From: an uncultured Oscillospiraceae bacterium
Lineage (GTDB): Bacteria; Bacillota; Clostridia; Oscillospirales; Oscillospiraceae
Length of the DNA: 64,000 nucleotides
Assembly: GCA_947623875.1 (NCBI GenBank)
Contig: CANQII010000001.1
Span: 31,925-95,924, forward strand
Direction: 5' to 3'
Shown here: positions 2,184 to 62,272 of the stretch, piece by piece
Layout: each line of letters begins with the position of its first letter
How positions within the stretch are numbered: position 1 is the stretch's first letter
Translations under genes and position numbers: made by a program
Notes under the pieces: generated by a model
The model's input: the letters and a program-made list of their open reading frames with translations, nothing else
Told to the model about the DNA's origin: nothing
Database searches by the model: none

Positions 2184-2323
2184 GCGTAGAAATACCGAAT
2201 TATTAAAGAAAGATTATGCTTAGATGTACATGAAAATATTACAAGAAATATAGAAGAAAGACAAGGGATTGTCTTGGAGAATGCAACTCCACGACAGCCC
2301 CTTGCTCCTCAGCTTTGATGGAG

Positions 2324-2352
2324 ATTCTACCACCTCAACCGTTGAAAATCAA
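2324..2352 (-). promoter_or_regulatory. Sigma70/SigA promoter inside the invertible segment, pointing left
   Basis: The minus strand reads TTGATT-17 bp-TAGAAT, with an extended -10 TG (tgg TAGAAT). Confidence 0.7.
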
Positions 2353-2433
2353 TGGGTTTTAAAAAGATTTTGGCGCTGTTTTCACAAAATTTGCTGCCAT
2401 TTTCTAGCATTTGGGATGAGATTTGGGCCATCC

Positions 2434-2630
2434 GCCGTCAGATAAGCCGTCAAATGGGTTTGAGGCTGGAAAAGGCGTTGTCCTCGTAGGAAATACAAAA
2501 TGTGATTCAGATAGGCTCAGATGGGACAAATGTCCTCGCATCGAACACACAGCAACATTATTGGCAAAAGAATATGCTGCTGTCCTGCTAGGAGCTTCAA
2601 AGAATAAGCCGTCAAATAAGCCGTCAGAAT
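2434..2630 (+). repeat. Two tandem pairs of a 12-bp repeat (ataagccgtca[a/g]) inside the invertible segment
   Basis: gccgtcagataagccgtcaaat at 2434-2455 and ataagccgtcaaataagccgtcagaat at 2604-2630. Confidence 0.8.
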
Positions 2631-2798
2631 TCAGAATCTGTACGATATTGCACCAAAAGCCCGTGTTTTTAGACTTTTTTCTCCAATCTAAGCGCTATTT
2701 TGCCCATTTGTCGTGGAGTTGCATTCTCTACGACAATTTACCAGTAAATTACCAGCTTTCCTTTATTTATTGTAAATCAAAGAGAAGGAGGGGGTTTC

Positions 2799-3185
2799 AT
2801 GTCAATATACGTGCAAAAAAGACCACAGGTGTATCCGAAGGAGTTCAACCGCCTGCTGTCTGAAAATGCGAATATCCCAGAGGAAGAAGCGGAAATCTTA
2901 GCAGAGGCTTTCGTGGAGACAATTGTTGAATCACTGCTGCAGGATCGCTCAATTTGCTTTCCAGAGTTTGGAGTTTTTGAACTGCGGGAGATAACCAAGC
3001 GGATGGGGCGAAACCCAAGGACTATGGAGGAGTATGTCATTGAGGAATCTATGAAGCCTGTCTTTCGGCCATCAAAGGCGCTGAAAAGCGCGGTTGCTGA
3101 ATATGCGAAAGAACGGAAGATGAGTGAGGGCACAATCAAGGATCCATCACGGAATGGTGATTTCAGCACGGGAGGTGAGGACTGA
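2799..3185 (+). CDS. HU/IHF family DNA-binding protein
   Basis: FPEFGVFE...RMGRNPRT.E...I.....PVFRPSKALK motif; AGGAGG RBS. Confidence 0.88.
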   Translation: MSIYVQKRPQVYPKEFNRLLSENANIPEEEAEILAEAFVETIVESLLQDRSICFPEFGVFELREITKRMGRNPRTMEEYVIEESMKPVFRPSKALKSAVAEYAKERKMSEGTIKDPSRNGDFSTGGED

Positions 3186-3315
3186 AGAGAAACTCTGGGC
3201 TGGTGCTATAAGATCCAGCAATCAAGCGAAAGGGTATTCTTAGCACTGAAGTGCCCAAATTGCAATTGTACATATGGATAGATCTATTTTGCTATATCAC
3301 TGGAGGGAAGTATAC

Positions 3316-6300
3316 ATGAGACATATGAAACAGCAGAAGCTTCCACGCAGGTTCACTGCGTTATTGCTCTGCCTGTGCATGATCCTGTCAATGGTCAGCG
3401 GGTTAGGGCTGGTCACAACGGTAGCTTCTGGAGCGGGACCGACAGAGCATGTGGCGGGTACCCGCGTGGCCGACCCTAACACGATGGACGACTACCAGAA
3501 CCGCCTGCTGACGGCAGAAAACGGCTCCCGCTATGCCGGCCGGGTCTGGACGGACAAGACAGTGTTTGCCTATGGTGCTGACAAAGCCAACGGCGGCACG
3601 CTTAATAACGAAATCGTGCTGGACATGGCTACGGATGGCTATGTTGGCAATGTCGGCTTTAATGCTGACTTTGCCCATGTCTTCAGTGCGCTGGCCAGCT
3701 CTCAGGTGGTAAACGAGTATCCGCCGCAGCCGCTGGACGTCATGTTTGTCATAGATGTCTCTGGTTCCATGGGCAAGATTCCCAGCGGCGAAATTGCTAC
3801 AGAAGGCAATTTTGAGGAATCAGCTATCTATAAGGCTGTGGATTCAGTCAACAAAGCTATCACGCTGCTGCTCAAGGAGAATCCTCGTTCTCGGTTTGGT
3901 ATCGTAATCTATGGGTCTACAGCGGCTGTTTTCGTCCCGCTTGGATTTTATTCAAGCGGCGAGTTGGTAGCGACATGTGGCGAAGCATATGGGGGAACCC
4001 AGGGCCTACATTACACCCTGACCGCTACAGTGGTTCCTGCTGAAGAGATGCCGGATGGCAAAATTGTCAGTACAGAAAGCAAAAAGACATACTATGCCGG
4101 TAATGCTGGTAAAACCAGCAATGAAGTTCATAGCAAAAATGGTGATGGTAACCGCAAATTGGCTGGCACAAGTGGTCGTACAGATGGAGATGGTACCTTA
4201 GGCAACCCGTACCAGGTTGGGCACATTACGAATCCGCAGGCTGGCCTGGCAGCTGCCATGGACCAGTTTATCACAAATAATGAGAAGCTGACGTGGCATA
4301 CTGTTGTTGAAGATAGAGAGTATGCACGGCTTCCGGCCCTCATTCATTTGACAGACGGCCAGGCCTCTGATTTGGCTTGGATTCAGCCGACAGAAGAGAC
4401 AGGAGATGAGTGGCAGAAAACGGTCAGCAACTGGAACAATGTGAACTGGCAGTATGATCTGGCATATAATAGCAAGATCAATACTGAAATTGAAAAAGAA
4501 GCATCAGAGGATCTATACAATGCATCCCAATTGACGGGCTACGGCGACGCAGCACCGGTCATTTTCCAAACTCTGATGACAGCTTCGTATTATAAATCTG
4601 CTGTAGAAGCGTATTATAATAGTAGTGGCGCCAAGACCAGAGATGGGGAACCTGTATCTCTGCAATGCTTCTCGATCTACGCTAGTGACCAGGATAAATA
4701 TGAGGATTTGGACGATAATCAGGTCAAGGCAACAATAGATGCGATTCTATGTCCTGCAGAATATTTCAAAGATGATGCTGCCTATTCTGATAAAGATAGC
4801 GGAAAACTAACAAAGGAAGACTCGGTAAGATGTTATATTGACACTGCATATGAGCTATATAATGATTGGGTAAAAACAGGAAATGTAGAAGCAGCATTCA
4901 GCGAAAATACAACCAGCGCGAACAAGCCCGAAAATGACATTACAATTTCGCTGAACACACAACAATCTCAGCTGAAAAGCGGGAAATACAGCAACGAATT
5001 GTGGCATGATAAGATAGACGAGGATTCTATTGATAAGAATGTCAATTATGTGCCAAAGGGGAACTTTTATAAGACTGGATTTGAAGGCTTAGGCGACGTT
5101 TTCCAAACGGTTGTTGAGAAACTGCTCAATAGCGCGTTTGTGCCTATTTCAGGCAGCAACGATGCGGGGGTAGATGGCTCCATTACCTACCAGGATCCCA
5201 TTGGCGATTACATGGAGATCAAGAACCAGTCGATCACCGCAACGCCGCACCACACAGAAGGGGAGCAAGTATCTGAGACGGAGACGACTTACGATATGTC
5301 GATGCTGCTCTTTGGTGAGATGCATGGCCTTGTCCGCACCGGTGTCTATGACTTCCAGTGGAATGATAAGTGGATGGAAAGCAAATATCCAAACGATAAA
5401 GGCGGTAAGGCAATAACCCAGGGCTGGTACAAAGGAGAGCCGGAAGAAGCCATATACGGCGGAACCGACGAAGTACCGAAAGAATCAAACGGCACAGGCA
5501 CAGAACTATATAAAAGTGCTGCAGATGCCTGGGCGGCTGGATGGGTCTACCGTTTGAACTTCCAGACCCTGTCGCAGTATGTGCCCCTGGTGAATGCACC
5601 AGCGAAGCCAGAAGAGCTTTCGCCGCAGGCAAAGAACACTGTGTACACGCTATATCGTTTTGCTGGATCAGCTCAAAACCGAAATGCTCTTCGACGCAAC
5701 CCAATCTATGGCGAAGTGCCTGGCGAATTGGCGGCATCATGGGAGAAGTATGACACTAGCGGTAATTATCCGACAGATAACAGTACCTACGCATCAACCC
5801 CAGGTGTGTACCGCCTTTCCGATATCCGCGTCTGGGTAGAGGACACCGGAGACTACGTGAATGAGGAAGGCGCCATTACGCCTAACTCCGGCTATGACCG
5901 CTCCCTGTATGTCAACGTGCCGGCCGCAGCGATTCCCACGGAGCTTGCCACGATCACCATTGATGAAAATGGTAAAGTGCTGTCCTACGAGACCAACCTG
6001 GGGAGCGACCACGCCCCCAAGAATGGAGCAGAGATTTCGGATGGTGAAGGAGGCAAAAGAAAAGTCAATGATGAGGACTACATGAATTTCTGCTACCAAT
6101 CCACTCCGTTAAGACTCTTTTATGCAGTTGGCCTGGAGGAGGATGTGATCTTCCGGGATGATGATGGGAACCAGACTGGTGTGGATTTCAACAAGATTTC
6201 GGCGGAATATATCCAATCCCATACGGTTGAAGGGCAGAACTATGTCTGGTTTATCTCGAACTTCTACTCTGGGACTAAATACGGTGAATATGCCACCGAT

Positions 6301-9300
6301 GCCGAGAACTATACCCGCGGCGATCCCACTGTGACGTTCTCACCCGGCGCGGACAACCGCTACTATGTGTTCCAAAAGGCACTGCCACTGTATGCTCACG
6401 CCTACCGTTACGTAGGTGGTAAGCTCGTGCCGGTGGACCGGATCGATGGTCAGAGCTTTGGAGCAAACAAGCAAGGCAATAGCGGGACTACCTGGGAGAC
6501 CTATAATGGTAAACAGCAGAAGGCCAGCTCCTGGGATGGCGGCCAGTTTATGGGGACGTATGCAAACGAAGAGGCATTCCTCCAGACAGCGAAAAGCTCA
6601 GCTGATGGCAAAATCACAGACCAAAACGAGAACACGTATGACATTGTGGAAAACGGCATCGTGTTCCTTGAGGAAGACTTGCTGGATCATGTGACCTCGA
6701 ATGGCAGCAGCTATGCTGAGGGTTCGGTTTCCTTCTCTTCCGATGACTACTTCTTCATTTTGCTGGAGTTCTACATGCCTGATAAGGGCGTTGGCGTGGA
6801 CAATGAGAATCATGAAGTAGCAGGAACATCGAAAGGGCACATGGTGCAGTATGCCATTGCCAGAAAGGGAAGCGAGTTTGGCTCCGGCTATGCATCGGGT
6901 AACATCTCCAACGGCGACATGCTCTGCTGGGCGGATGCCAACGGCAACCTCAACGTGGAGTTTGCCTACGTGTCGCGCAGCGAGACCGGCGATAACACAC
7001 GCGGCGAGCCGACGTTTGACAAGCTGAAGAAAACCAATGGCGAGTTGAAGGAATACCTCCAAAGTACATGCAATCTCAGCGGCGCTGCTCTTGATGCGCA
7101 GGTGGACTATTGGACGAAGATGCAGAAGGACTCTGCGGTTCAAAAGGCTATGGAAGAGATTGATAGCGAGACAAAATTCAAAGAAAGGTTCAAATTCACA
7201 GTCGCGGCTAAGCCGGGAGGCATTCGCACCGGTGACATGTCAAACAACATTCAGGATAAAGAGGAAGAATACAATAGCGACAAAGGCACCACCGAGTTCG
7301 GAAAAACAAACACGTCTGCCACTTATTACCTGCCAACGGTCGCGGATGACTCCGGCGTAGGCGACGAAGTGATCATCAACAACTACCTGGGCAATAACGG
7401 CCGCCTGGAGATCGCCAACCAGATGCTTCATGTGACCAAGATGGTAGAGCTGCCGGATGGTACAGCAGTCCCGTCCGATGAGGAGTTCAACTATCAGATC
7501 TTTGTGCAAGGCGTCACAGGAAAGCGCTCGGCTGTCCGCACCTTGTACAATGAGTACAGCGGTACATGGGAGCGCCGTCTGGCCTACATTGATGTGCTCA
7601 CAGACAACAGCGACCTGTTGCTGGACAACAGCGATAACCGGGCGCTCTTCGAGTTGCAGGTAGATAGCACAGCCAAACAGGTGGTAGCAAACGAGGAAGG
7701 GCAGCTGGTCTATGCAGATGGGGACGGCAATCCTACGACTGACCAGTGTAGCGGTACCACCCTCTACTACCTGTACCTGAAGTCCAACGGCGAGCATACC
7801 CGCAGACTGTATCGGGATTCGGCATATGTGGATACCAATTTTAAAGACTTCTCGAAGAACGGTACTACCACGTTCTTTAAGGATGGAGACAGAGAGGAAA
7901 CAAGGTCGGAACCCGGGGCAGCAAACAGAGATAGCTATCGTATAGCGACTTCGGAGCGCCCTGCCGGCACCAGAACATACTGGGTGCTGGACGCGGTGTT
8001 GATCCCCAAAACTGAAGTTGAGGATGCTGAGAGTGCCGGGAATTGGACCTATAATGCGTCTGATTCCGGTCACGAAGCACTGAAGTATCACACGCTTGTG
8101 ATCCGCAAGCCAAATGATGAGACCAGTGAGACGGCGTTCTCGTCCCCCTACAAGACGCGGACTCAGTACATGACCACGGAACTGGATTTTGGAACCACGG
8201 CCAACGGAGATCAGCTGGCAGCGGAAGATCTGTATGACAGCATTATTCCCAGTGGAGACCGTCCGGATCTGTTTGCCAATCTCACAAATGATCAGATTGC
8301 GAAGAACACAGCGGAGTTCACACTGAAACATGGCGAGGGCCTGCTTCTCACCGGACTGGATAACCGGATTACCTATCGCTTTACGGAGAAGCTCACGCAA
8401 GCTCAGGTGGATTTTGGCTACTCTCTGAAAGAAGTCAGCCACATCCAGCAGCGCGGTTCTGAAAGTATTTATCGACCCGGAACCCAGCAAATCCCGATCT
8501 ACTCCTATGATGGCGCTATCTATGGTGGCCAGTATGGGACATATGCGAAATCCAAGACTGAGAACGGCCTGACCTGGGCGGTGGACACGAACGGGACACA
8601 CAACAACGAAAGCTACCGCCATATGGAACCCTTCGCCCACACCAATGCTGTCATGTGGGAGTACTACGCTACGATGGAAGCTGGTTCTTCTGGAAACCAT
8701 CACCAACCTTCTGGTGTTGAGCCAGAGACAGAAAATATGCAGATATGGGATCAGCACACTGCGAACTCATACACATCTACAGAAGTTCAACATACGGTTT
8801 CGAACAACCCCAACTGTGAAGTATGTGACGAACTGCTGTTAGACGGCTCTGGTTCTGTTCTCCACTACATGTATAAGGATGGCGAACTCGTTGACCCGCA
8901 CTACGAGGGTGAGGCTTCAACCTACTTGCGGAACATGGCCCGCTACGGCGTCAGCCCAACTGTTCACTTTGCCGTGACCAACGAGCCGGACACATCGATT
9001 GTCCCATCGACCCCGAACGATGATTACACAGGCGTGTATTCGGTGTTCGGTAACACGGGATGGTTCGAGGAGCAGGTTCACTTTGTAAACACCTATGAGC
9101 CGGACAAGAAAGAAACTGACCCAGGAGATGGCAAACAGGTACAGGTTGGCGACGAGATCACCTATGAGATCAGCTACTACAACATTACAGCGGATACAGC
9201 ACCTGTCATCATCGTGGATCGGCTGGATCCTGGTGTCGATTTTGTAAGAGCGACAGATGAAGGCTTCTACAGGTATTTTGACAAAGCTAGCACTGCGGAA

Positions 9301-12300
9301 TATGTGATTCGTGGAGATACAAAGTCTATAAAAGTGCCTGCTCACACCGTTGTTTGGGTTATGAATGACGTTGCACCCAATACAGGTGGAACAGTAACCC
9401 TTACGGTACGAGTAAACGAGAATGCAAAGAAACTCTGGCAATATGGGGACGACTATTTAGGTGAACGAGAGCAAGATCCTAAGGAAAACGATTTCGAGGT
9501 AGTAGACAAAGCCGGCGTTCAAGTGGGCAACGGACCCATGCTTTACACTGACCAGGTAGAAAACCCTGTAACAGAAAAGATTGAGTCGGATCCTGGCGAT
9601 GGCGAGACGGTAGAAGTAGGGGATGAAGTCACATATGAAATCAGCTGGCGCAACACGGAAGACGTCAGCCAGGAAATCATTGTGACAGACTGGCTGGACG
9701 ATGGCGTGGACTTTGTCTCTGCTTCGTTCAAAGACATCACGCTGACGACAGCCGGTGTAATCTCGGGATCTGTCGGCGAAGGGGAAGAAACCCAAGCCAT
9801 AACGATTGCATACGAGACGGGGCACAAGGTCACCTGGACGATCAAAAATGCAGCGCCCGGAGAGTATGGAACCGTAACCCTGAAGGTGAAAGTGAACGCC
9901 AACGCGGTAAAGAAATGGTCTTATCAAGGCGAATCTGGCGATGGTACGGCTGACGACCATGCGACTGATTGGAAGATCATCAACCGCGCCGAGGTCGACA
10001 TCGGGAACGACGACCACTTTGTCACAAAGCAGGTGGAAAACCCGCTCCAGGAGAAGACGGAAATTGATCCCGGAGACGGCAAACAGGTCTTGGTAGGTGA
10101 TACCATCACCTATGAGATCCAGTATCACAACAATACAGCCAAGACAGCCAGCATCACGATCATGGATACACTGGATCCGGGTGTGACATTTGATTCCGCC
10201 ACAGATGAGGGCGTGTACCATGGTGAGGCTGGTACGTTGGATGATGAAGAGGCACCTGGTTACGGTGAGACAATCCCTGCCCACAGCGTGGTTTGGGTGC
10301 TGAAAGACTTGGCGCCAGGCGCCAGCGGCACAGTTCAAGTCACCGTCCGCGTGAATGCGAGAGCGTTTGAGAATTGGCAATACAATGAAGACAACGGCAC
10401 ACTCACCAACGGTAATGGCAAAGACTATGAAGTTGTGAACAAGGCCAGCATCAAGGTCGGCGACGAGAACTGGCACTACACCAACGTGGTGGAGAACCCT
10501 GTCCCGGAGAAGACGGAGACTGACCCGGGTGCCGGGGAAGGCGTAGCCGTCGGGGATGAAGTCACCTACGAGATCGGCTGGCGCAATGCCACGAACAAAG
10601 ACCAGACGGTCACAGTGGAAGACTGGCTGGACGACGGTGTGGACTTTGTCTCTGCAGCTTTCAAAGACGTTGAACTGAAAGCAGGGAAAGAGACTGTCAC
10701 CTATACGATACCGAAGGGTGCCAGCGGCGAAGAGAACCAGACGGTCACCATCACTTACAGTGCGTCGGAGCACAAGGTCACATGGACGATCGACAAGGTC
10801 GCGCCTGGTGAGATCGGCACCGTGCAGCTGATCGTACGGGTGAATGAGAACGCGTTTATAAAGTGGTCTTACCCAGATAAGCAGGGAGACGGTACAGCCA
10901 ACCCGTATGAGCAGGACTACAAGATTGTCAACCGCGCAGAGGTCTGCATCGACAACGACCGCAAGGTGACGCCGGAAGTGGAGAATCCTGTGCTGGAGAA
11001 GACCGAGATCCATCCTGGCAGCGGTGAGCAGGTAGGCATCGGGGACCAGGTAGATTATTCCATCACCTGGAACAACTACGAGACCGAAACTGCTGATGTT
11101 ACAGTGCGTGATGCGCTGGATCCCGGAGTGGACTTTTTGAGCGCTAGCTTTGGCAGTGTCACTCTTAATGCATATGACCTGGATAGCGATACGAGTATTT
11201 ATAGCATTAGTGGCGATGCAAGCATCTATTATTATCTGGGAAATGACACATATGTGAAATGCCATGTTACCATCACTTACAATGGAAACAGCCATGAAAT
11301 TGTGTGGTTTATCGAGAATGTTCCTGCCGGGTACTGCGGAACAGTACAGTTCTCTGTGCAAGTAAACGAGAACGCTGACAAGGGGTACCGTTACGACAAT
11401 AACGGCAATATCCCATCGTATCCCGTTGGAGAAGATGACTACAAGATTCTCAACCAAGGCGGCGTAACGGTTGGAAATCATTCAGAGTACCTGACGAACA
11501 TCATCGAGAATCCCACAAGGCCCACATTTGTGCCAAAGGTGAAGAAAGTACTGGAAGGCGACCCACTACCGCTTGGGAATTTCACGTTTACCTTGGAAGA
11601 GAATCCAGGCAATCACCCTGGTGCTATTATGCCCGAGATAACAACTCAGACCATCAAAGGCTATGGTGAGGCCGAATTCGATGAAATCATCTTCACGGCA
11701 CCAGGCAATTACTCCTTCACAATCAGAGAATCCGTGTTGAATCCAGAGCCAGGATACACCTACGATGACAGCGTCTGGACCCTTACCGTGTATGTCGAGG
11801 GACCCGATGGAAAGTGGAAAGCATCTGGATACTATACTAAGGAAAGCGCAACAAGCGATACTGAAGCAACATTCACAAACGCATATGAAGAACCGAAACC
11901 TGAGACTGGCAGCCTCACTGTCAAAAAGACGGTTACAGGTGATACTGGAGACAAGACCAAGGAGTGGCATTTCACCGTTACCCTCAGTGACGGTACTGTT
12001 AACGGCAAGTTTGGCGGCATGACCTTCACCAGCGGTGTAGCCACCTTCACCTTGAAGCACGATGAGAGTGCCACTGCCACAGGCCTGCCCGCTGGTATCA
12101 CATACACAGTTGAAGAGACCGAAGCAAATCAGGACGGCTACGGGACAACCGTAACCAATGACACAGGAACCATCCCGACCAACGGAACTGCCACGGCTGC
12201 CTTTGTAAACGATAAGTCGGATGGAGAACCGCACAAGGTCGAAGTGACGCCAGGCGATGGTGAGGTCGTTCAGATAGGCGATGAAATTACCTATCGCATC

Positions 12301-15300
12301 GACTGGAAGAACTCGTCCGGTAAGGAAGCTGAGATCAGAATTGAGGACCCACTGGACCAAGGGGTAGATTTTGTGTCGGCCACGAACGGCGGTACCTATG
12401 ACGCGGTATCCCATACCGTCCAGTGGAACCTCGGCAAACAGGCGCCTGGTGCCAATGGATCGGTTACCCTGGTGGTTCGGGTGAATGCAATGGCCCTGCA
12501 GAATGAAGGATCCAAGGTGGATAACCAGGCCACCGTCTATGTGGACAACAACCCAACTGTGACCGAGATCCCGGAGAACCCGGTAGAACCTGGCGGAGAT
12601 CCGCACAAGACGGAAACCGATCCTGGCAACTATCTGGGTGTAAAGGTGGGCGATAACATCACCTACAGCATCTTCTGGGTGAACTGGACCGGCAAGACTG
12701 CAGAAGTCAGCATCACAGACCCGCTGGATGTGGGCGTAGACTTTGTCTCTGCCTCCGATGGCGGAACCTATGATCCTGCAACCCGCACTGTCACATGGAA
12801 CCTTGGAAGCAAGCCCGCAGATGATTCTGGCTACGTCACCTTGGTAGTCAAGGTCAATGCCAGTGCTTTGGCAAAGGCAGACCGTACCGTGTACAACCAG
12901 GCCACTGTCACGGTGGACAATGAGTCAAGGCAGACTGAGATCCCGGAGAACCCGGTGGAACCCGGCGGAGACCCGCACAAGACTGAGACAACTCCGGGCA
13001 ACCGTGTGGGCGTTGAAGTGGGCGAGAACATCACGTACCGTATCACTTGGGTGAACTGGACCGGCAAGACCGCATCGGTTACCATCACAGACCCGCTGGA
13101 TGTGGGCGTAGACTTTGTCTCTGCCTCGGATGGCGGAACCTATGATCCTGCAACCCGCACTGTCACATGGAACCTTGGAAGCAAGCCCGCAGATGATTCT
13201 GGCTACGTCACCTTGGTAGTCAAGGTCAATGCCAGTGCTTTGGCAAAGGCAGACCGTACCGTGTACAACCAGGCCACTGTCACGGTGGACAATGAGTCAA
13301 GGCAGACTGAGATCCCGGAGAACCCGGTGGAACCCGGCGGAGACCCGCACAAGACTGAGACAACTCCGGGCAACCGCGTGGGCGTTGAAGTGGGCGAGAA
13401 CATCACGTACCGCATTGACTGGGTGAACTGGTCCGGCAAGGCCGCAGAAATCACCATCTTAGACCCGCTGGATACTGGTGTGGACTTTGTCTCAGCCTCG
13501 GATGGCGGCAGATATGACGCAGCATCTCACACCGTGATCTGGGACATTGGCAACAAGCCTGCAGAGGACTCTGGCTATGTCACACTGGTGGTCAAGGTCA
13601 ACGAGAGCGCCCTGGATAAGGCTGATCGTACCGTGTACAACCAGGCCATCGTCTTCGTAGACAACGATTCTAAGATGACCGAGATCCCGGAGAACCCGGT
13701 GGAACCGGAAGGCGAACCCCACAAGACAGAGGTCACACCTGGCGATGGTCAGACCGTCAAGGTGGGCGATGTGATCACCTATCGCATCGACTGGATCAAC
13801 TGGACTGGGGACACCGCAGCAATTAGCATCACAGACCCGCTGGACAGCGGCGTAGACTTCGTGTCCGCCTCGGACGGCGGCACCTACAACGCAGCCACCC
13901 ACACTGTCACCTGGAATCTTGGAGACAAGGTCCCTGGAGCCAGCGGCTCCGTCACTCTGGCGGTCAAGGTGAACGCCGATGCCCCAGAAAAAGCAGACAA
14001 GACGGTGTATAACCAGGCCACTGTCACAGTGGGCAACGAGTCCAAGCAGACCGAAATCCCGGAGAACCCGGTGGAACCGGAAGGCGAACCCCACAAGACA
14101 GAGGTTACACCTGGCGATGGTCAGACCGTCAAGGTGGGCGATGTGATCACCTATCGCATCGACTGGATCAACTGGACTGGAGACACCGCGGCAGTTAGCA
14201 TCACAGACCCGCTGGATAGCGGCGTAGACTTCGTGTCCGCCTCGGATGGCGGCACATACAACGCAGCCACCCACACCGTCACATGGAATCTGGGAGACAA
14301 GACCTCCGGAGCCAGCGGCTCCGTCACCTTGGTGGTCAAGGTGAACGCCAATGCCCCAGCAAAGGCAGACAAGACGGTGTACAACCAGGCCACCGTCACG
14401 GTGGGCAACGAGTCCAAGCAGACCGAGATCCCGGAGAACCCGGTGGAAGGCGCTGGCGAGCTCACCGTTACGAAGATCCTGGAAGGCGAGAATGCCGATC
14501 CCAACAAGGACTGGACCTTCACCGTCACCCTCAGTGACACCAGCATCAACGGCACCTACGGTTCCATGACCTTCACCAACGGCGTGGCCACCTTTACCCT
14601 GAAGGGCGGCGAGAGCCTTACGGCTACTGGCCTGCCTGCTGGCACCACCTATACGGTTGCCGAGGCGGAGGCCAACCAGGATGGGTACACCACCACGTCC
14701 ACGGGTGAGACCGGAGAGATCCCGGCGGAGGGCTCTGCGGAAGCAGTATTCACCAACAGCATTGGCGTGGGAGACCTCACTGTCACGAAGATCCTCGAGG
14801 GTGAGAGTGCAGACCCGAACAAGGACTGGACCTTCACCGTTACACTGAGCGATCCCACCATCAACGGCACCTACGGTTCCATGACCTTCACCAACGGCGT
14901 GGCCACCTTTACCCTGAAGGGCGGCGAGAGCTTAACCGCAACCGGTCTGCCCGCTGGCATCACCTATACGGTTACCGAGGCGGAGGCCAATACCGATGGG
15001 TACAAGACCACGTCCACGGGCGAGACCGGAGAGATCCCGGCGGAGGGTTCTGCAGAAGCGGTGTTCACCAACAGCATTGATACAGGTGCCCTTACTGTCA
15101 CGAAGATCCTCGAGGGCGAGAATGCCGATCCCAACAAGGACTGGACCTTCACCGTCACCCTCAGCGATACCAGCATCAACGGCACCTACGGTTCCATGAC
15201 TTTCACCAACGGCGTGGCCACGTTTACCCTGAAGGGTGGCGAGAGCTTAACCGCCACTGGCCTGCCCGCTGGCATCACGTACACCGTCACAGAGGCGGAA

Positions 15301-16239
15301 GCCAACGCAGATGGGTACAAGACCACATCCACTGGTGAGACCGGAGAGATCCTGGCGGAGGGCTCTGCGGAAGCGGTGTTCACCAACAGCATCGAAGCGG
15401 GAGCGCTCACGGTGGTCAAGAACATCGAGGGCAAGGAAGCAGATCCCAACAAGGACTGGACTTTCACTGTCACGCTGAGCGACACCACCATCAACGGCAC
15501 CTACGGTGGCATGACCTTCGTCAACGGTGTAGCCACCTTCACCTTGAAGGGCGGCGAGAGCCTCACAGCCACCGGCCTGCCCGCTGGCATCAGCTATACG
15601 GTTACCGAGGCGGAGGCCAATACCGATGGGTACACCACCAGATCGGCCTTTACCAATGGCACCATCCCAGAAGACGGCGAGGCTGTGGCCACGTTCGTCA
15701 ACAGCAAGGGCGAGGTGGAGAAAGGCAACTTCGCGGTCCGTAAGAGAGTGAGAGGCGAGGACGCCGATCCGAATCAGGTATTCCACTTCATCATCACCCT
15801 CAGCGATCCCACCCTCAGCGGCACGTTTGGCGATGTCACCTTCGAGAACGGCGTGGGCTATGCAGCCCTGAAAGACGGCGAGCACGCCTGGATTCTGGGC
15901 CTTCCTGTGGGGACCACGTACACGGTCACAGAGGTGGAGGCCAACCAGGACGGGTACCAGACCCATGGCGAAGGGGAGACCGGAGCGGTCCCGGCAACGG
16001 GCCACACCGAGGCCAGATTCACCAACTTCAGAGGACCCGGCGAACCCAACTGGGATGAGCCGTGGGAGGATCTGCCGGATCCGGAAGTGCCGCTGGCACC
16101 GCCGGAGGACAATCCCTCAGACAACCCGCCCCAGACCAACGATCAGTCCAACCGGGAGATGTGGATGCTGATGATGGCAGCTGCCTTCCTTGGCATGACG
16201 GCACAGTTCCTCCCCGGGAAGAGAAAAGAAGAGGCTTGA
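3316..16239 (+). CDS. Giant cell-wall-anchored adhesin (~4,307 aa): signal peptide, vWA domain, DUF11-like and other Ig-like repeats, sortase-type anchor
   Basis: GGAGG RBS before ATG 3316; signal peptide (RRFTALLLCLCMILS); MIDAS motif DVMFVIDVSGSM and LTDG; repeats with GDEITY..ITDPLD.GVDFVSA; C-terminal PPQTND followed by a hydrophobic stretch and KRK. Confidence 0.88.
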   Translation: MRHMKQQKLPRRFTALLLCLCMILSMVSGLGLVTTVASGAGPTEHVAGTRVADPNTMDDYQNRLLTAENGSRYAGRVWTDKTVFAYGADKANGGTLNNEIVLDMATDGYVGNVGFNADFAHVFSALASSQVVNEYPPQPLDVMFVIDVSGSMGKIPSGEIATEGNFEESAIYKAVDSVNKAITLLLKENPRSRFGIVIYGSTAAVFVPLGFYSSGELVATCGEAYGGTQGLHYTLTATVVPAEEMPDGKIVSTESKKTYYAGNAGKTSNEVHSKNGDGNRKLAGTSGRTDGDGTLGNPYQVGHITNPQAGLAAAMDQFITNNEKLTWHTVVEDREYARLPALIHLTDGQASDLAWIQPTEETGDEWQKTVSNWNNVNWQYDLAYNSKINTEIEKEASEDLYNASQLTGYGDAAPVIFQTLMTASYYKSAVEAYYNSSGAKTRDGEPVSLQCFSIYASDQDKYEDLDDNQVKATIDAILCPAEYFKDDAAYSDKDSGKLTKEDSVRCYIDTAYELYNDWVKTGNVEAAFSENTTSANKPENDITISLNTQQSQLKSGKYSNELWHDKIDEDSIDKNVNYVPKGNFYKTGFEGLGDVFQTVVEKLLNSAFVPISGSNDAGVDGSITYQDPIGDYMEIKNQSITATPHHTEGEQVSETETTYDMSMLLFGEMHGLVRTGVYDFQWNDKWMESKYPNDKGGKAITQGWYKGEPEEAIYGGTDEVPKESNGTGTELYKSAADAWAAGWVYRLNFQTLSQYVPLVNAPAKPEELSPQAKNTVYTLYRFAGSAQNRNALRRNPIYGEVPGELAASWEKYDTSGNYPTDNSTYASTPGVYRLSDIRVWVEDTGDYVNEEGAITPNSGYDRSLYVNVPAAAIPTELATITIDENGKVLSYETNLGSDHAPKNGAEISDGEGGKRKVNDEDYMNFCYQSTPLRLFYAVGLEEDVIFRDDDGNQTGVDFNKISAEYIQSHTVEGQNYVWFISNFYSGTKYGEYATDAENYTRGDPTVTFSPGADNRYYVFQKALPLYAHAYRYVGGKLVPVDRIDGQSFGANKQGNSGTTWETYNGKQQKASSWDGGQFMGTYANEEAFLQTAKSSADGKITDQNENTYDIVENGIVFLEEDLLDHVTSNGSSYAEGSVSFSSDDYFFILLEFYMPDKGVGVDNENHEVAGTSKGHMVQYAIARKGSEFGSGYASGNISNGDMLCWADANGNLNVEFAYVSRSETGDNTRGEPTFDKLKKTNGELKEYLQSTCNLSGAALDAQVDYWTKMQKDSAVQKAMEEIDSETKFKERFKFTVAAKPGGIRTGDMSNNIQDKEEEYNSDKGTTEFGKTNTSATYYLPTVADDSGVGDEVIINNYLGNNGRLEIANQMLHVTKMVELPDGTAVPSDEEFNYQIFVQGVTGKRSAVRTLYNEYSGTWERRLAYIDVLTDNSDLLLDNSDNRALFELQVDSTAKQVVANEEGQLVYADGDGNPTTDQCSGTTLYYLYLKSNGEHTRRLYRDSAYVDTNFKDFSKNGTTTFFKDGDREETRSEPGAANRDSYRIATSERPAGTRTYWVLDAVLIPKTEVEDAESAGNWTYNASDSGHEALKYHTLVIRKPNDETSETAFSSPYKTRTQYMTTELDFGTTANGDQLAAEDLYDSIIPSGDRPDLFANLTNDQIAKNTAEFTLKHGEGLLLTGLDNRITYRFTEKLTQAQVDFGYSLKEVSHIQQRGSESIYRPGTQQIPIYSYDGAIYGGQYGTYAKSKTENGLTWAVDTNGTHNNESYRHMEPFAHTNAVMWEYYATMEAGSSGNHHQPSGVEPETENMQIWDQHTANSYTSTEVQHTVSNNPNCEVCDELLLDGSGSVLHYMYKDGELVDPHYEGEASTYLRNMARYGVSPTVHFAVTNEPDTSIVPSTPNDDYTGVYSVFGNTGWFEEQVHFVNTYEPDKKETDPGDGKQVQVGDEITYEISYYNITADTAPVIIVDRLDPGVDFVRATDEGFYRYFDKASTAEYVIRGDTKSIKVPAHTVVWVMNDVAPNTGGTVTLTVRVNENAKKLWQYGDDYLGEREQDPKENDFEVVDKAGVQVGNGPMLYTDQVENPVTEKIESDPGDGETVEVGDEVTYEISWRNTEDVSQEIIVTDWLDDGVDFVSASFKDITLTTAGVISGSVGEGEETQAITIAYETGHKVTWTIKNAAPGEYGTVTLKVKVNANAVKKWSYQGESGDGTADDHATDWKIINRAEVDIGNDDHFVTKQVENPLQEKTEIDPGDGKQVLVGDTITYEIQYHNNTAKTASITIMDTLDPGVTFDSATDEGVYHGEAGTLDDEEAPGYGETIPAHSVVWVLKDLAPGASGTVQVTVRVNARAFENWQYNEDNGTLTNGNGKDYEVVNKASIKVGDENWHYTNVVENPVPEKTETDPGAGEGVAVGDEVTYEIGWRNATNKDQTVTVEDWLDDGVDFVSAAFKDVELKAGKETVTYTIPKGASGEENQTVTITYSASEHKVTWTIDKVAPGEIGTVQLIVRVNENAFIKWSYPDKQGDGTANPYEQDYKIVNRAEVCIDNDRKVTPEVENPVLEKTEIHPGSGEQVGIGDQVDYSITWNNYETETADVTVRDALDPGVDFLSASFGSVTLNAYDLDSDTSIYSISGDASIYYYLGNDTYVKCHVTITYNGNSHEIVWFIENVPAGYCGTVQFSVQVNENADKGYRYDNNGNIPSYPVGEDDYKILNQGGVTVGNHSEYLTNIIENPTRPTFVPKVKKVLEGDPLPLGNFTFTLEENPGNHPGAIMPEITTQTIKGYGEAEFDEIIFTAPGNYSFTIRESVLNPEPGYTYDDSVWTLTVYVEGPDGKWKASGYYTKESATSDTEATFTNAYEEPKPETGSLTVKKTVTGDTGDKTKEWHFTVTLSDGTVNGKFGGMTFTSGVATFTLKHDESATATGLPAGITYTVEETEANQDGYGTTVTNDTGTIPTNGTATAAFVNDKSDGEPHKVEVTPGDGEVVQIGDEITYRIDWKNSSGKEAEIRIEDPLDQGVDFVSATNGGTYDAVSHTVQWNLGKQAPGANGSVTLVVRVNAMALQNEGSKVDNQATVYVDNNPTVTEIPENPVEPGGDPHKTETDPGNYLGVKVGDNITYSIFWVNWTGKTAEVSITDPLDVGVDFVSASDGGTYDPATRTVTWNLGSKPADDSGYVTLVVKVNASALAKADRTVYNQATVTVDNESRQTEIPENPVEPGGDPHKTETTPGNRVGVEVGENITYRITWVNWTGKTASVTITDPLDVGVDFVSASDGGTYDPATRTVTWNLGSKPADDSGYVTLVVKVNASALAKADRTVYNQATVTVDNESRQTEIPENPVEPGGDPHKTETTPGNRVGVEVGENITYRIDWVNWSGKAAEITILDPLDTGVDFVSASDGGRYDAASHTVIWDIGNKPAEDSGYVTLVVKVNESALDKADRTVYNQAIVFVDNDSKMTEIPENPVEPEGEPHKTEVTPGDGQTVKVGDVITYRIDWINWTGDTAAISITDPLDSGVDFVSASDGGTYNAATHTVTWNLGDKVPGASGSVTLAVKVNADAPEKADKTVYNQATVTVGNESKQTEIPENPVEPEGEPHKTEVTPGDGQTVKVGDVITYRIDWINWTGDTAAVSITDPLDSGVDFVSASDGGTYNAATHTVTWNLGDKTSGASGSVTLVVKVNANAPAKADKTVYNQATVTVGNESKQTEIPENPVEGAGELTVTKILEGENADPNKDWTFTVTLSDTSINGTYGSMTFTNGVATFTLKGGESLTATGLPAGTTYTVAEAEANQDGYTTTSTGETGEIPAEGSAEAVFTNSIGVGDLTVTKILEGESADPNKDWTFTVTLSDPTINGTYGSMTFTNGVATFTLKGGESLTATGLPAGITYTVTEAEANTDGYKTTSTGETGEIPAEGSAEAVFTNSIDTGALTVTKILEGENADPNKDWTFTVTLSDTSINGTYGSMTFTNGVATFTLKGGESLTATGLPAGITYTVTEAEANADGYKTTSTGETGEILAEGSAEAVFTNSIEAGALTVVKNIEGKEADPNKDWTFTVTLSDTTINGTYGGMTFVNGVATFTLKGGESLTATGLPAGISYTVTEAEANTDGYTTRSAFTNGTIPEDGEAVATFVNSKGEVEKGNFAVRKRVRGEDADPNQVFHFIITLSDPTLSGTFGDVTFENGVGYAALKDGEHAWILGLPVGTTYTVTEVEANQDGYQTHGEGETGAVPATGHTEARFTNFRGPGEPNWDEPWEDLPDPEVPLAPPEDNPSDNPPQTNDQSNREMWMLMMAAAFLGMTAQFLPGKRKEEA
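12223..14450 (+). repeat. Six tandem 372-bp (124-aa) DUF11-like repeats, several nearly identical
   Basis: PHK codons recur at 12229, 12601, 12973, 13345, 13717 and 14089. Confidence 0.92.
14455..16035 (+). repeat. Five tandem ~315-bp (105-aa) Ig-like repeats (a sixth copy starts at ~11908)
   Basis: G.LTV.K units start at 14455, 14770, 15085 and 15400, plus a diverged unit at 15724. Confidence 0.9.
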
Positions 16240-16279
16240 GATACGCCGGATTCGTCCTGCGTGATTGAGCGCACAGCAT

Positions 16280-16318
16280 GAGACGCGGCGGGCAGCTTTA
16301 TGGCTGCCCGCCGCGTCT
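16280..16318 (+). terminator. GC-rich hairpin after the adhesin gene
   Basis: agacgcggcgggcagc-tttatg-gctgcccgccgcgtct. Confidence 0.7.
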
Positions 16319-16402
16319 TGTGCTCTGGGGAAGGAAAATAGGATGGTCCAAGAATGTTGGAAAAGATCTCCCCAAATGGCTGGTCTTTTTGCGGTCTGGG
16401 TA

Positions 16403-17397: not shown

Positions 17398-18852
17398 TTA
17401 TCCTTTCCGCTGGATCTGGGCCATGGCGGCCCGGTGTGCGGCGATCTCCCTGTCTGCGTCCAGAGAGGTGGGGGCGGCGCCGGGATAGAAGGAGGCAAAC
17501 CGGGCTGCCTCGCCGCCTTGGATGCCGGCAAAGACCTTTTTTAGTGCAGCCAGCACGCGGAGAAAGTCGAAGGCGATGAAGTCCAGGTAGCAGTACTGCA
17601 TGCCAATGGCAAAGCCGGTGACGAAGACCTCTTTGCCTGCAGCCGCCTTGATCTTCTGCGGAAGGTCCAAAATGGAATGGCAATCTGCCAGGTCGGGCTT
17701 TGTGGGATAGAACACGAAGCCGGCGGCAACCCCTTGCCCGAGGAGACCGTAAAACATGCGGTCCTTGCCCTCCTGATACTCCTGGAGAAGTTCCGGAAAA
17801 CAGGAGAAACCAGAGACAATATCGCTGCGAAGGCTGGCGGACGGCTTGAGATGGCGTACCGATGCAAGAGAGCGGTCCAGGTAGCTGCGGGCGGACATCC
17901 GCAATTCCATTTTTCGGGCGGTCCTGCGGGTCCTGCACAGCCGGTCCAAGGGGAGTGCATCGCGCCGCGGCTCTCTCTCCTCCACGAGGATGGGGCGAAA
18001 GACATATCTGGCGGGGATCTCTCCCACAGCATCGGCAACCGCCTGCTCTGCCAGCTTTTGTGCCTCTGCCGCGTCTTGGGCGGCCAAGTTTGCCAGGGCG
18101 CTGTTGTACACATGGATGGGCGTGGGCTGGTCGTCTTCCGCTTTGTCCATGGTGAACTGGAATTGGCTGAGATCATAGGAGGAGCCGGAGATCAGTACCT
18201 GCTGGTTGAGAGACAGCTCCAGGCCTGCCCGGAACTGCCACTTCTTCTGGAGGGCTGGGGGAACATGCTCCTCCAGGTACAGCAGGGGGAAGATGTTTTC
18301 CGGGTCCTCAGCCAGGATGAATTGCAGATGAAAAACGCCGTTCTCTTCGCTGAAGCCAAAGGGGAGATAGCCCTGGGCGTTGAACACGCTGGAGATGAGC
18401 GGAAAGGCCTTGGAGTAGTTCCAGGTGTGTAAGGCCCGGGTGATGGCAGCCTCCCTCTTTTGGAACGCCTCCCACAGATCGGGGACCAGCGCGGCATAGC
18501 TGGGGTTGCCCACAGGGAAGGTGCGGTGAAACCGGCAGATCTCCTGGTAGCCGGGCAGTTGAAGCTCTTCCGGCATCTGCTGAAACAGGCGCTCCGCATG
18601 GCCATAGCGCTGGATCTCCAGGTTGGAGAGTGCCATCCCGAAGAGAATGGGGGCCAGCCAGTGCGTACGCCCTTCCATGCACTCCATGATGGTGTCTGCA
18701 TTCTGCCAGGCTTTGGCCCGGTATTCCTGCCAGTCCTCTTCGGCCTGCTCGCGGTGGTCCCAGAGGTCCATGGCGCCGAGAACGGCCTGCTCCAGGCGCT
18801 TTTCGAGGCGTGCATAGTGGGTCTGCTGACGCATCTGTGCTAAGAGGTCCAT
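17398..18852 (-). CDS. Hypothetical protein, family A paralogue 3 (484 aa)
   Basis: ATG 18852 with AAGGAG RBS; aligns with its two neighbours (IFPLLYLEEH, WQFRAG, LRSDI, GVAAGF, YLDFIAFD). Confidence 0.8.
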   Translation of the reverse strand: MDLLAQMRQQTHYARLEKRLEQAVLGAMDLWDHREQAEEDWQEYRAKAWQNADTIMECMEGRTHWLAPILFGMALSNLEIQRYGHAERLFQQMPEELQLPGYQEICRFHRTFPVGNPSYAALVPDLWEAFQKREAAITRALHTWNYSKAFPLISSVFNAQGYLPFGFSEENGVFHLQFILAEDPENIFPLLYLEEHVPPALQKKWQFRAGLELSLNQQVLISGSSYDLSQFQFTMDKAEDDQPTPIHVYNSALANLAAQDAAEAQKLAEQAVADAVGEIPARYVFRPILVEEREPRRDALPLDRLCRTRRTARKMELRMSARSYLDRSLASVRHLKPSASLRSDIVSGFSCFPELLQEYQEGKDRMFYGLLGQGVAAGFVFYPTKPDLADCHSILDLPQKIKAAAGKEVFVTGFAIGMQYCYLDFIAFDFLRVLAALKKVFAGIQGGEAARFASFYPGAAPTSLDADREIAAHRAAMAQIQRKG

Positions 18853-18901
18853 ATCAATGCTCCTTTGTCTGTGCTGTAGGCGGTTGGGCCCGTGCGCAGT
18901 G

Positions 18902-20359
18902 CTATCCCCGCCGCTGAATCTTGGCCATGGTGGCCCGGTATGCGGCGATCTCCCTGTCTGCGTCCAGAGAGGTGGGGGCGGCGCCGGGGTAGAAGGAGGC
19001 AAACCGGGCCGCCTCGCCGCCTTGGATGCCGGCGAAGACCTTTTTCAGGGCAGCCAGCACGCGGAGAAAGTCGAAGGCAACGAAGTCGATGTAGCAGTTC
19101 TCGCTGCCGATGGAGATGCCGGTGATGGCGATGTCATCTCCGGCGGCATCCCGGATCCGCCGTGTCATGTTGGGAACGTGCCTCTTGGGTGGGGTGGTAC
19201 AGAGCTCTTTCGGATAGAACAGGAAGCCCGTAGCCACGCCCTGGGTGAGGAGATGGTTGAACAGATTGGAACTGCGCTCCCGGTATGCCTGCAGGATCTC
19301 CGGGAAACAGGTGGAGCTGTAGAGAATGTCGCTGCGGAGGCCAGCGGACGGCTTCAGGTGTTCCGCCTGCACGGCATATGTCTCCAGATAGCGGCGGGCC
19401 GATGTGTCCAGGTCTGCCCCCTCATGGACAATCAGGTCAAAAGCCAGGCAGTCCAGGCTTTGGGAGGGATTGACCAGCGGCTTGGAGGCCACGAGGACGG
19501 GGTCCAGATAGCGTTGGGCGGGGATCTCCCCGATGGCATAGGAGACCGCCCGTTTCGCCAGCCGCTTCGCCTCTATAGGGTCTCGCCTGGTCAGGGCTGC
19601 CAGGTCCTTCCGGTAGACGTGAATGGGACGGCGATTGCAGCCTCCCGGTTTCCCCAGGGTGTATCGGAAATGGGAGAGCGGGTAGGCCTTCCCATTGTAG
19701 CGGATGGGCTCATTCGGCTCTGTCTCGAAACCTGCCCGGAACTGCCATCTCTTTTGGGTGAGGGCGGGCAGGACGTGCTCCTCCAGGTAGAGCATGGGGA
19801 AGATGTCCCCCGGCGATTCTCCTATGCTGAACCGCATCTCGATGCCGCTGTCTGACGTGGCAAAGGCGGCGAGAAAGGGAGCGGTCTGGGCGTGAAAGAC
19901 TGAGCGCACCAGTTCAAAGGTTTTGAGGAATTCGCCGGTCTGCAGACAGCGGGCGATGTCTCCCTCGATCTGGAGGAAGGCACGCCACATCTGGGGGGCC
20001 AGCGCGGTAAAGCAGACCTTTGTCACGGGGAAGCGGCGGTGAAACTGGCAGATCTCCAGGTAGCCGGGCAGCCGGTCTGAGGCGGGCATCTGTTGAAACA
20101 GATTCTCTGCCAGATCGTAATGCTGCCACTCCAGTGCGGAGAGGGCGGCGCCGAATTGGTCCGGGAGAAGTCCTGTGCCGGAGAAATCGCCCATGAGGAT
20201 GTCTGCGTTGCAATAAACCTGGGTGCGGTATGCAAAGCAGTCTTTCAGCTTCTCCTCGCGCTGCTCCCACAGGTCCAGCGTGCTGAGAATATGCGGTTTG
20301 TGCTCTGGCTTGCACTGGCCCCGCTGTACCAGGCTGCGGATTCGGGTGATGATGTCCAT
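18902..20359 (-). CDS. Hypothetical protein, family A paralogue 2 (485 aa)
   Basis: GGAGGAG RBS; same motifs as its neighbours. Confidence 0.8.
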   Translation of the reverse strand: MDIITRIRSLVQRGQCKPEHKPHILSTLDLWEQREEKLKDCFAYRTQVYCNADILMGDFSGTGLLPDQFGAALSALEWQHYDLAENLFQQMPASDRLPGYLEICQFHRRFPVTKVCFTALAPQMWRAFLQIEGDIARCLQTGEFLKTFELVRSVFHAQTAPFLAAFATSDSGIEMRFSIGESPGDIFPMLYLEEHVLPALTQKRWQFRAGFETEPNEPIRYNGKAYPLSHFRYTLGKPGGCNRRPIHVYRKDLAALTRRDPIEAKRLAKRAVSYAIGEIPAQRYLDPVLVASKPLVNPSQSLDCLAFDLIVHEGADLDTSARRYLETYAVQAEHLKPSAGLRSDILYSSTCFPEILQAYRERSSNLFNHLLTQGVATGFLFYPKELCTTPPKRHVPNMTRRIRDAAGDDIAITGISIGSENCYIDFVAFDFLRVLAALKKVFAGIQGGEAARFASFYPGAAPTSLDADREIAAYRATMAKIQRRG

Positions 20360-20403
20360 GTGGGATCTCCTCCGGGTGCAAGAACAGGGATCTTCGAGGT
20401 GGG

Positions 20404-21846: not shown

Positions 21847-22143
21847 AAGGTCCTCCTTCTGTTTTGTGTGGGGAATCCCATCCGTTTCGTGTGTCCATTC
21901 TACCCGATCTCCGCTGCCGCTGCAAGGCAAAATCTGCCGCTTTTTCATGCTTTTCGTCCGAAATTTCCCCCGGTGTTCCGGCTTGAGCCCCCTGCTTTGC
22001 CCTTTTTCCTGATATTGGCCGGCGGAGTTACACTTTTTTGGAGAAATTCACAAAAAGGTATGGCGCAGCGGAGAGAAGTATGCTATAATGCGGGGGCAGG
22101 GGGGCCCGTAGACCCTGTATCACTGGCGGAAGGAGTTAGAACC

Positions 22144-45661: not shown

Positions 45662-45668
45662 AGGTCTC

Positions 45669-47522: not shown

Positions 47523-47537
47523 TTTTCTCCTCCTCGT

Positions 47538-48461
47538 TTAATCCTGGCTGTTCAGATCTTTCCAGCAGTGTGCATGTTTCAGTTTCCAAAATGCCGCCTT
47601 GTCCTGCAGGAGCAGGACAGAGTCCTCCGGCTGCAGGTCCCCCAGCAGAACCGAGAAGCTGTCCAGCACCAGCAGGAAGGTGAGGGCATTGTCCTTTGCG
47701 GCGTGAGAGCGGCGTTGGTGGCGATTCCAGTCCTGGGCATAGCGGTCCAGCATCTCCGCCAGAGACACATGTTCCTCATCGGGCACGGTGGAGAAGTAGC
47801 GGAAGAAGAGGCTGGCGAGGACCGAGTTGTAGCTGTCCGGGTTCAATTCCCGGGTCAGGCCGATGCCGTTCCAGTAGGGCACGAAGGGGAGCGGCTGGGT
47901 GAGCTGCGCCCCATGCTGCAGGGCATACGCCTTCAATACCGGAACATCGCCATGCCGCAGCCAGCAGCACACTGTGTCGTCCCGGACAAAACGGGAGACC
48001 TTGATCAGGAAATCCTCTTTGGCGCCCTGGAGCAGGGCAAACACCAGATCCAGAAACGGCTGGCGCACCGCCGTGCCGGGGAAGGAGAGGTAGGCCTTGA
48101 TGTATGCGCTCTCATCGTACCTGTCCCGGATCTCTTTGCCCGCCGGAGATGGCGCATACTGGAGCCAGTAATAGGAGTGATTGGGCCAGACGTCCCACCC
48201 CATCGCCTCTGCGGGGGCGAGGAGATCCTCCTGCAGCGGTTCCGCCTTCTGGGAGAAGAGATCGGTGGGCTGGTCCCGGTCCAGATTCTGCATGGCAGTA
48301 TAGAGACCGCCGCAGTCCGCAGGGCGGCGCCGGTAGAGGTCCTGGAGAAGGGCGTTGCGGGCCTGATACTGGGGGGTATCGGTTGGCACCGTGAAGCTGA
48401 CGGCGCCGAGGTTGGGGGAGACTTTGGGGAACGTATTTTTCCGGGTAAAGAAGCCTGCCAT
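47538..48461 (-). CDS. Family C paralogue 2 (C-terminal domain only)
   Basis: MAGFFTRKNT is joined directly to FPKVSPN; the AAA-like part is missing. Confidence 0.78.
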   Translation of the reverse strand: MAGFFTRKNTFPKVSPNLGAVSFTVPTDTPQYQARNALLQDLYRRRPADCGGLYTAMQNLDRDQPTDLFSQKAEPLQEDLLAPAEAMGWDVWPNHSYYWLQYAPSPAGKEIRDRYDESAYIKAYLSFPGTAVRQPFLDLVFALLQGAKEDFLIKVSRFVRDDTVCCWLRHGDVPVLKAYALQHGAQLTQPLPFVPYWNGIGLTRELNPDSYNSVLASLFFRYFSTVPDEEHVSLAEMLDRYAQDWNRHQRRSHAAKDNALTFLLVLDSFSVLLGDLQPEDSVLLLQDKAAFWKLKHAHCWKDLNSQD

Positions 48462-48494
48462 GGGCCAATGCCACCTTTCCTGTACGTGTTCTTG

Positions 48495-62173: not shown

Positions 62174-62272
62174 ATCGATCTCCCTTCTTCTGGAAACTGC
62201 AGGCCCGCCGGGAGGCGGGCCTGCGTAAGATGTATGGCTTGGTTCATTTGTCTGATTGGGTGAGAATTGCGC

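Follow-up and report, generated by a model that had tools for sequence, protein, structure and literature searches.

A candidate invertible promoter switch upstream of an HU-like gene and a giant predicted adhesin in an uncultured Oscillospiraceae bacterium, and its wider family

In Bacteroides and the enterobacteria promoter inversion is a familiar phenomenon, but descriptions from gut Clostridia and enterococci are sparse. The Hin enzyme of Salmonella is a serine invertase, and inversion of the fimS element of Escherichia coli uses host factors. As described in PMC2784873, fimS is a short invertible promoter segment at which tyrosine recombinases turn an adhesin operon ON or OFF, and in the Salmonella H-segment the recombinase lies inside the inverting DNA, together with an outward promoter. 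One unlinked tyrosine recombinase of the gut clostridium Clostridium difficile, RecV, is reported to serve several switches (cwpV, flg and Cdi2-6) of surface and signalling genes (PMC2784873, PMC5903667), and Mpi of Bacteroides fragilis is presented as a single master invertase of many scattered promoter switches of surface loci (PMC5903667). Here we describe a 468-bp segment (2269-2736) with inverted repeats at both ends, found in a 64-kb stretch of DNA from an uncultured Oscillospiraceae bacterium (assembly GCA_947623875.1, contig CANQII010000001.1, positions 31,925 to 95,924; the whole stretch is called the window below). In our judgement it is probable that this segment inverts between two 29-bp sites, directing its promoter either to a terminator (OFF) or to an operon of an HU-like gene and an adhesin gene (ON), and that it is flipped in trans by an integrase encoded on another contig of the assembly, C43.

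A preliminary description, made from the letters of the window, had placed 29-bp sites with reverse-complementary 7-bp cores (AATGCAA and TTGCATT) at the ends of the segment; both sites are present, and as a pair they stand above all controls. They are complementary at 26/29 positions in the register first given and at 27/29 when taken as 2268-2296 and 2709-2737, compared with at most 21/29 for the best inverted 29-bp pair, both in the intergenic region resampled 200 times by a Markov model and in 98 tiles of 613 bp from other parts of the window. The genome search for further sites that had been proposed recovered this one pair, with no third copy at up to eight mismatches in the 3.53-Mb assembly, which is 75% complete. 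Two tandem GCCGTCA pairs with a 12-bp period, overlooked in the preliminary description, lie inside the segment. The features of the switch region are:

2136-2183, no strand assigned: two-way intrinsic terminator-like hairpin, 3' of a MATE gene, conserved in the congener G019
2269-2297, plus strand: left recombination site, with an 11-bp arm, the 7-bp core AATGCAA and an 11-bp arm; the flipped joint falls inside it
2324-2352, minus strand: outward sigma-A-type promoter, TTGATT-17-TGnTAGAAT, from a consensus scan, with its -10 end 26 nt inside the left site
2434-2452, plus strand: first GCCGTCA pair, a predicted arm-type integrase site
2608-2626, plus strand: second GCCGTCA pair, 81 nt from the right site, a predicted arm-type site
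2708-2736, minus strand: right recombination site, its core inverted relative to the left (TTGCATT)

The minus-strand promoter just inside the left site had also been proposed beforehand and was recovered by the consensus scan; as assembled it faces out of that end of the segment and away from the HU-like gene, which would be the OFF state, and it is predicted from its consensus match together with its conservation in the family described below. In the flipped state its -35 and -10 hexamers map to 2653-2658 and 2676-2681. This is upstream of the HU start, as expected, but not at the distance of about 90 bp first given, the -10 ending at 2681, 118 nt before the ATG. The suggestion of a bidirectional terminator at 2136-2183 was borne out by terminator-like hairpins called on the plus strand at 2140-2176 and on the minus strand at 2167-2149 by consensus scan; this hairpin would stop the OFF-state transcript and shield the switch from read-through of the MATE gene.

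Parts of the stretch are contained in ten public runs, those covering most of it being rabbit-gut metagenomes and none of them an RNA run, and the contigs of seven of the ten were compared with both forms. The window orientation is bridged at one or other site by contigs of runs X1, X2, X3 and X4, which are one sample, perhaps the source of the window, and so are not independent. The inverted orientation, which had been predicted, was seen, at its left junction, in contigs of two samples from one other study (X5 and X10); in both, the left flank ends at 2296 and continues into the interior, read as its reverse complement starting at 2708, the short side of this flipped joint measuring 222 nt in X5 and 119 nt in X10. 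Both orientations exist, the difference being one between strains. A contig of X6 extends only 13 nt beyond 2296 and was not counted as bridging, and an apparent skip from 2275 to 3607 in X1-X3, which rests on 21 letters from another organism's contig, was set aside.

The anatomy of the segment is shared by a widespread family of loci in gut bacteria, of which the window's segment is a member without a recombinase. A scan of GTDB genomes with the GCCGTCA motif gave 78 loci, and the number was again 78 after the window and two G019 loci had been added and three duplicate rows removed. A site pair of at least 21/29 surrounds the motif at 49 of the 78 loci and at 0 of 229 control centres (control maximum 20). 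This count includes the three seed loci, for which a match was built in; in several cases one genome contributes more than one locus, and related loci are not independent observations. The other 29, taken as a group, comprise truncated contigs, motif matches arising by chance in distant phyla, and integrase loci whose sites have diverged. Within the 49 pairs, mismatches were found at 0/343 core positions against 171/1078 arm positions, with 42 different cores, and this is the pattern expected of tyrosine-recombinase crossover regions; the sites have the dyad arms and the matched core, within 6-8 bp, of lox-like tyrosine-recombinase substrates. In 39/49 loci a sigma-A-type consensus pointing outward is present inside the motif-upstream (left) site; the other site has one in 1/49, an inward consensus occurs in 4/49, and the promoter chosen in the preliminary description is the one conserved at that end of the segment.

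The family comprises a long and a short form. Twenty-seven loci are self-contained, measuring 1.4-1.66 kb and enclosing a tyrosine integrase of the Tn916/Tn1549 type (~370 aa) directly behind the first motif pair, and the remaining 22 are empty like that of the window, measuring 0.25-0.58 kb with motif-to-site distances similar to those of the long form. It is fairly likely that the short switch arose from a self-contained switch of ~1.4 kb by loss of the integrase gene between the motif pairs. The second pair, where found, lies 37-43, 53-55, 73 or 80-83 nt from the right site, and these spacings, from a small and related sample, are approximately whole helical turns apart, which would fit arm-type sites. 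The X5 strain carries a third 12-bp unit at the second pair, and the pairs are retained in a diverged paralogue in G019. Loci found by pattern in metagenomes have a motif-containing pair in 36/125 cases and lack it in 89/125. One self-contained metagenome locus was found 25 times one way (two rows being one contig) and three times the other way, and in two of its copies (L252 and L253) both 400-nt flanks are swapped at 99-100% identity.

Eighty open reading frames (ORFs) point outward from the sites. Many are shadow frames that gave no match, and the genes among them include those for pilins, sortase, large surface proteins, NusG-family antiterminators, CpsB and Wzz, as well as HD and EAL proteins and response-regulator-type proteins. 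Homologous targets can lie on opposite sides, as at L063 compared with L043 and L073, and at L046 compared with six others. It could be argued that the segment is left over from a small mobile element that carried an integrase, and that it can invert, HU and the adhesin being served by a fixed promoter of their own; according to bioRxiv 10.1101/542381, the enzyme family is known chiefly from phages and integrative and conjugative elements (ICEs). The element also occurs at many unrelated loci. Inverted cores of recombination sites give inversion and not excision, however, the consensus scan found no plus-strand promoter between 2737 and 3400, the targets show a bias towards surface, capsule and signalling genes, and the promoter has a constant position and direction, all of which make a relic very improbable.

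Several of these loci are of interest in their own right. At L044 (~5830-7250) the switch is self-contained and has a gene for a 726-aa epimerase/RmlD-domain protein on either side, the two genes being divergent and paralogous; it is likely to be an either/or rather than an ON/OFF switch. Empty switches precede NusG-family antiterminator genes at L046, L054, L056, L060, L065, L070 and L111, a layout which recalls the promoter-inversion-plus-UpxY arrangement of Bacteroides capsule loci. Self-contained switches of Enterococcus species (L062, L064, L076, L081, L084, L092, L100 and L107) have response-regulator-type, pilin and peptidoglycan-hydrolase genes as targets.

The comparison with related genomes proposed at the outset was made with G019, whose assembly is 100% complete. 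At the orthologous locus the core has changed from AATGCAA to AATACAA in both sites, a compensatory change, so that the two cores co-vary. G019 has six empty switches, no two with the same core. All are in the OFF orientation in the assembly, and each has a promoter similar to that of the window and in the same position. The targets of all six are large proteins with signal-peptide-like starts, the HU-like gene coming first in three. That distinct cores prevent recombination among several switches in one genome seems fairly likely.

As had been stated beforehand, the window holds no recombinase, the five Phage_integrase matches of the assembly all lying on other contigs. The expectation of one encoded elsewhere is now answered by a candidate, since one of these five tyrosine recombinases, on contig C43, is a member of the integrase family (347 bits; the next scores 106). 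Its catalytic residues, R203, K249, H311, R314, H337 and Y347, make up the complete R-K-H-R-H-Y set, and its gene adjoins a ruvX-like gene on its 5' side, as judged from translation. The counterpart in G019, 83% identical and in the same gene context, is the only one of the family among 13 tyrosine recombinases in that genome. Both fall in a subclade (Shimodaira-Hasegawa approximate likelihood ratio test 98, in a quick tree of 83 rows) with the integrases of self-contained switches, of which L037, L118, L119 and L122 have arms GTCGCAGAG, like the window's GTCGTGGAG/GTCGTAGAG; two further members, L166 and L168, have such sites on one side and not at all, respectively. At L166 (1328-1446), three tandem family sites, 45 bp apart and with the same core, stand beside a family integrase. 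A family gene above 300 bits is present in 5/78 genomes of the genus, all five of which have sites or switches, and 9/10 genomes chosen for their empty switches have the family integrase.

Named homologues of the C43 integrase are from the Oscillospiraceae, so that the host is probably a clostridial commensal of the gut. In sequence it matches the Tn1549 Int (PDB 6EMY) at E 1.2e-37, and the same enzyme is the best structural match of its model (Z 21.0, root-mean-square deviation (rmsd) 3.4, 288 aligned), being closest in the core-binding and catalytic domains; residues 7-360 of the model align with 15-356 of full-length lambda Int (Z 17.5, rmsd 12.5, 314 aligned). For residues 1-56 the prediction is three strands plus one helix, which is the arm-binding topology of arm-binding tyrosine recombinases as described in bioRxiv 10.1101/542381.

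Beyond the right site, the window carries:

2799-3185, plus strand: gene for an HU/IHF-like DNA-bending protein of 128 aa (PF00216, E 1.6e-20)
3316-16239, plus strand: giant predicted adhesin of ~4,307 aa, in an ORF of 4,321 codons open from 3274
16270-16325, plus strand: hairpin 3' of the adhesin stop, identified by eye

This order, an HU gene and then an ORF of ~4,300 aa, was already recognised in the preliminary description and agrees with the PF00216 match of the one and the vWA, DUF11 and pilin-type matches of the other. The HU-like protein scores under the NCBIfam cut-offs for HU and IHF, and its gene would be the first of the predicted switched operon, the likely end of which is the hairpin at 16270-16325. 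The adhesin probably starts at 3316, preceded by GGAGGGAAG, giving 4,307 aa, and not at 3274. The full set of profile matches of the long ORF is to vWA, DUF11, FctA, DUF7601, DUF5979 and pilin-isopeptide models; its N-terminus is signal-peptide-like, and its C-terminus, NPPQTND followed by a hydrophobic stretch and a basic tail, looks by eye like a sortase-type anchor, with one sortase gene in the assembly. In G019, HU-like genes are repeatedly found upstream of surface-type protein genes, the relatives before its surface-protein genes being a 74% identical orthologue and paralogues of 53-59%.

Taken together, the observations suggest the following mechanism. The C43 integrase itself probably recognises the 11-bp arms and carries out strand exchange over the matched 7-bp cores; it would cut at the core edges and invert 2269-2736, and the inversion would turn the promoter away from the terminator and towards the operon. 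Its N-terminal domain, somewhat less surely, would bind the GCCGTCA pairs as arm sites, for which the pairs are candidates by position. Cells would be a mixture of adhesin-OFF and adhesin-ON. Phase variation of the adhesin by promoter inversion, the central proposal of the preliminary description, has thereby gained a flipped orientation, a conserved promoter and a candidate recombinase, while its ON/OFF effect on transcription is one that we infer.

A number of points weigh against this interpretation, the first of which concern orientation. The flipped contigs have a depth of 2-3, come from a single study and cover the left junction only, the right junction of the flipped form being found in none of the compared runs. 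They are also from a different strain, with 5-6 shared base changes in 145-210 nt, and in the low-depth contigs examined the two orientations occur together in 0 runs. The orientations could then be fixed strain alleles left by rare or past inversion, with the switch locked and no phase variation within a population; orientation tracks strain in the runs examined, the left site of the window has two arm mismatches absent in G019, and the G019 switches are assembled OFF in 6/6 cases. Against such fixation, the perfect core match in 49/49 pairs needs ongoing selection or conversion, the integrase appears intact from its sequence, and near-identical copies of one self-contained locus occur in both orientations; one contig of X4 stops precisely at 2296, the point at which the two forms part, which is a weak hint in the same direction. 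We consider fixed alleles improbable. The OFF state may also be imperfect, as a weak inward plus-strand consensus (TTCACA-18-TAGCAT) at 2381-2410 could make it leaky, inward promoters being rare in the family.

Further points of this kind concern the enzyme. The C43 integrase is not linked to the switch, its identity to the nearest self-contained relatives is only 47-49%, and neither switch sites nor the GCCGTCA motif were found around its gene. Outgroup (ICE-type) integrases reach 296 bits and G099 matches 302-306, near the 300-bit cut-off, which like that of 21/29 was chosen after the data had been seen. The N-terminal domain alone has no significant profile or fold match (Tn916 Int N-domain at rank 4, E 0.5; best Z 5.9), and no remnant of an integrase gene was detected in the interior of the window's segment. 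One genome, G097, has an empty switch in an assembly without a family integrase at E 1e-70. It is conceivable, therefore, that the promoter switch is real and that something else flips it, namely an XerD-like gene on contig C362 or a gene outside the 75%-complete assembly, the C43 integrase being a bystander. There are four other tyrosine recombinases in the assembly, and RecV of C. difficile illustrates that unlinked enzymes can serve unrelated repeats (PMC5903667). The sites and motif of the window are nevertheless the same as those of switches which enclose this integrase family, the integrase subclade agrees with the arm type, and G019, complete as it is, combines six switches with its single family gene. 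Another enzyme is accordingly unlikely, although less so than fixed alleles, and the C43 integrase is retained as the probable one.

The HU-like gene, lastly, is outside the family anatomy, as tblastn matched it beside a switch at only two of the 78 loci, those of the window and of G019 contig C31; on G019 contig C72 (L015:9142-14329) such a gene precedes one for a 1,412-aa surface-type protein, and neither sites nor motif were found. Arm-domain integrases usually need a bending factor, as lambda Int does. The HU-like protein could act as such a factor for the integrase and so feed back on the switch. That the product of the ON state bends the segment and alters the flip rate is nevertheless a tentative idea, and we rate it low because the HU-like gene travels with surface-protein genes and not with the switch family. 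Equally speculative is the broader picture of a domesticated conjugative-transposon-type integrase giving a two-tier system, in which self-contained cassettes of integrase and promoter exist beside short integrase-less derivatives. The latter would retain just core sites, arm sites and promoter and be run by one chromosomal master; each switch would be addressed by its own 7-bp core, and in this lineage the first gene under control would be that of a private HU-like feedback protein.

Elsewhere in the window, three consecutive ORFs of ~620 aa with weak AAA-ATPase-like matches (43832-50345, minus strand) lie beside the gene for a 1,643-aa SLH-domain protein at 50882-55813. A zeta-toxin-like ORF is found near two Sel1-repeat genes at 58974-63175 (minus strand). 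Three ORFs of ~500 aa without Pfam matches occupy 17398-21948 (minus strand), where overlapping plus-strand frames make the gene calls ambiguous.

The combination of GCCGTCA pairs, 11-7-11 sites, an outward promoter and one integrase clade amounts to a searchable signature. With it, phase-variable adhesin, pilin, capsule and signalling loci can be predicted with no need of reads, and it points to a candidate master enzyme. If correct, a single recombinase working on numerous sites, each distinguished by its 7-bp core alone, would constitute a natural set of orthogonal DNA switches. No description of this site, motif and integrase family was found in the literature searched, which excludes most subscription papers.

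Set beside the systems already described, the window's switch has the organisation of fimS, but the FimB and FimE recombinases adjoin their switch (PMC2784873), whereas the candidate enzyme here is unlinked and of the arm-domain integrase type. The window has, moreover, 29-bp lox-like dyad sites and conserved internal tandem repeats. With RecV, compared here by its description, it would share the single unlinked tyrosine recombinase and the kind of gene controlled, and the cores may bear some resemblance to RecV sites. The cwpV segment, however, is reported to lack a promoter and to be controlled by termination (PMC2784873), while the present family has a conserved promoter inside, so that termination-type control from an outside promoter does not apply. 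The C. difficile repeats are given as mostly unrelated (PMC5903667), whereas here arms, motif and promoter are held in common and the core differs. The Mpi system would be similar in its one master enzyme and scattered surface loci, and differs in that Mpi is a serine recombinase (PMC5903667). The H-segment is the counterpart of the self-contained relatives, the window's own segment being without an enzyme.

The nearest catalogued Clostridia set is hCom2 inverton group 139 with invertase group 35, again with a tyrosine recombinase and, in one example, 25-bp repeats (PMC11892184). As published, its members measure ~250-310 bp and nearly all have an invertase nearby, outside the regulatable position (PMC11892184); compared on that description, no invertase gene lies within 5 kb of the window's segment, and in the present family the short switches have none nearby and the long ones enclose it. 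The candidate enzyme is closest in sequence and fold to the Tn916/Tn1549 Int subgroup, with which it has the RKHRHY residues in common and whose three-strand/one-helix N-terminus its predicted topology would fit (bioRxiv 10.1101/542381; PDB 6EMY). Those enzymes are described as integrating and excising phages and ICEs, the Tn916 lineage with a relaxed choice of target, and the inversion case named in that account is Rci, of another subgroup (bioRxiv 10.1101/542381); the sites of the window family, by comparison, are inverted and have strictly matched cores. The switch family differs from the systems described so far, then, in its Tn916/Tn1549-type integrase and in the occurrence of long and short forms of one element.

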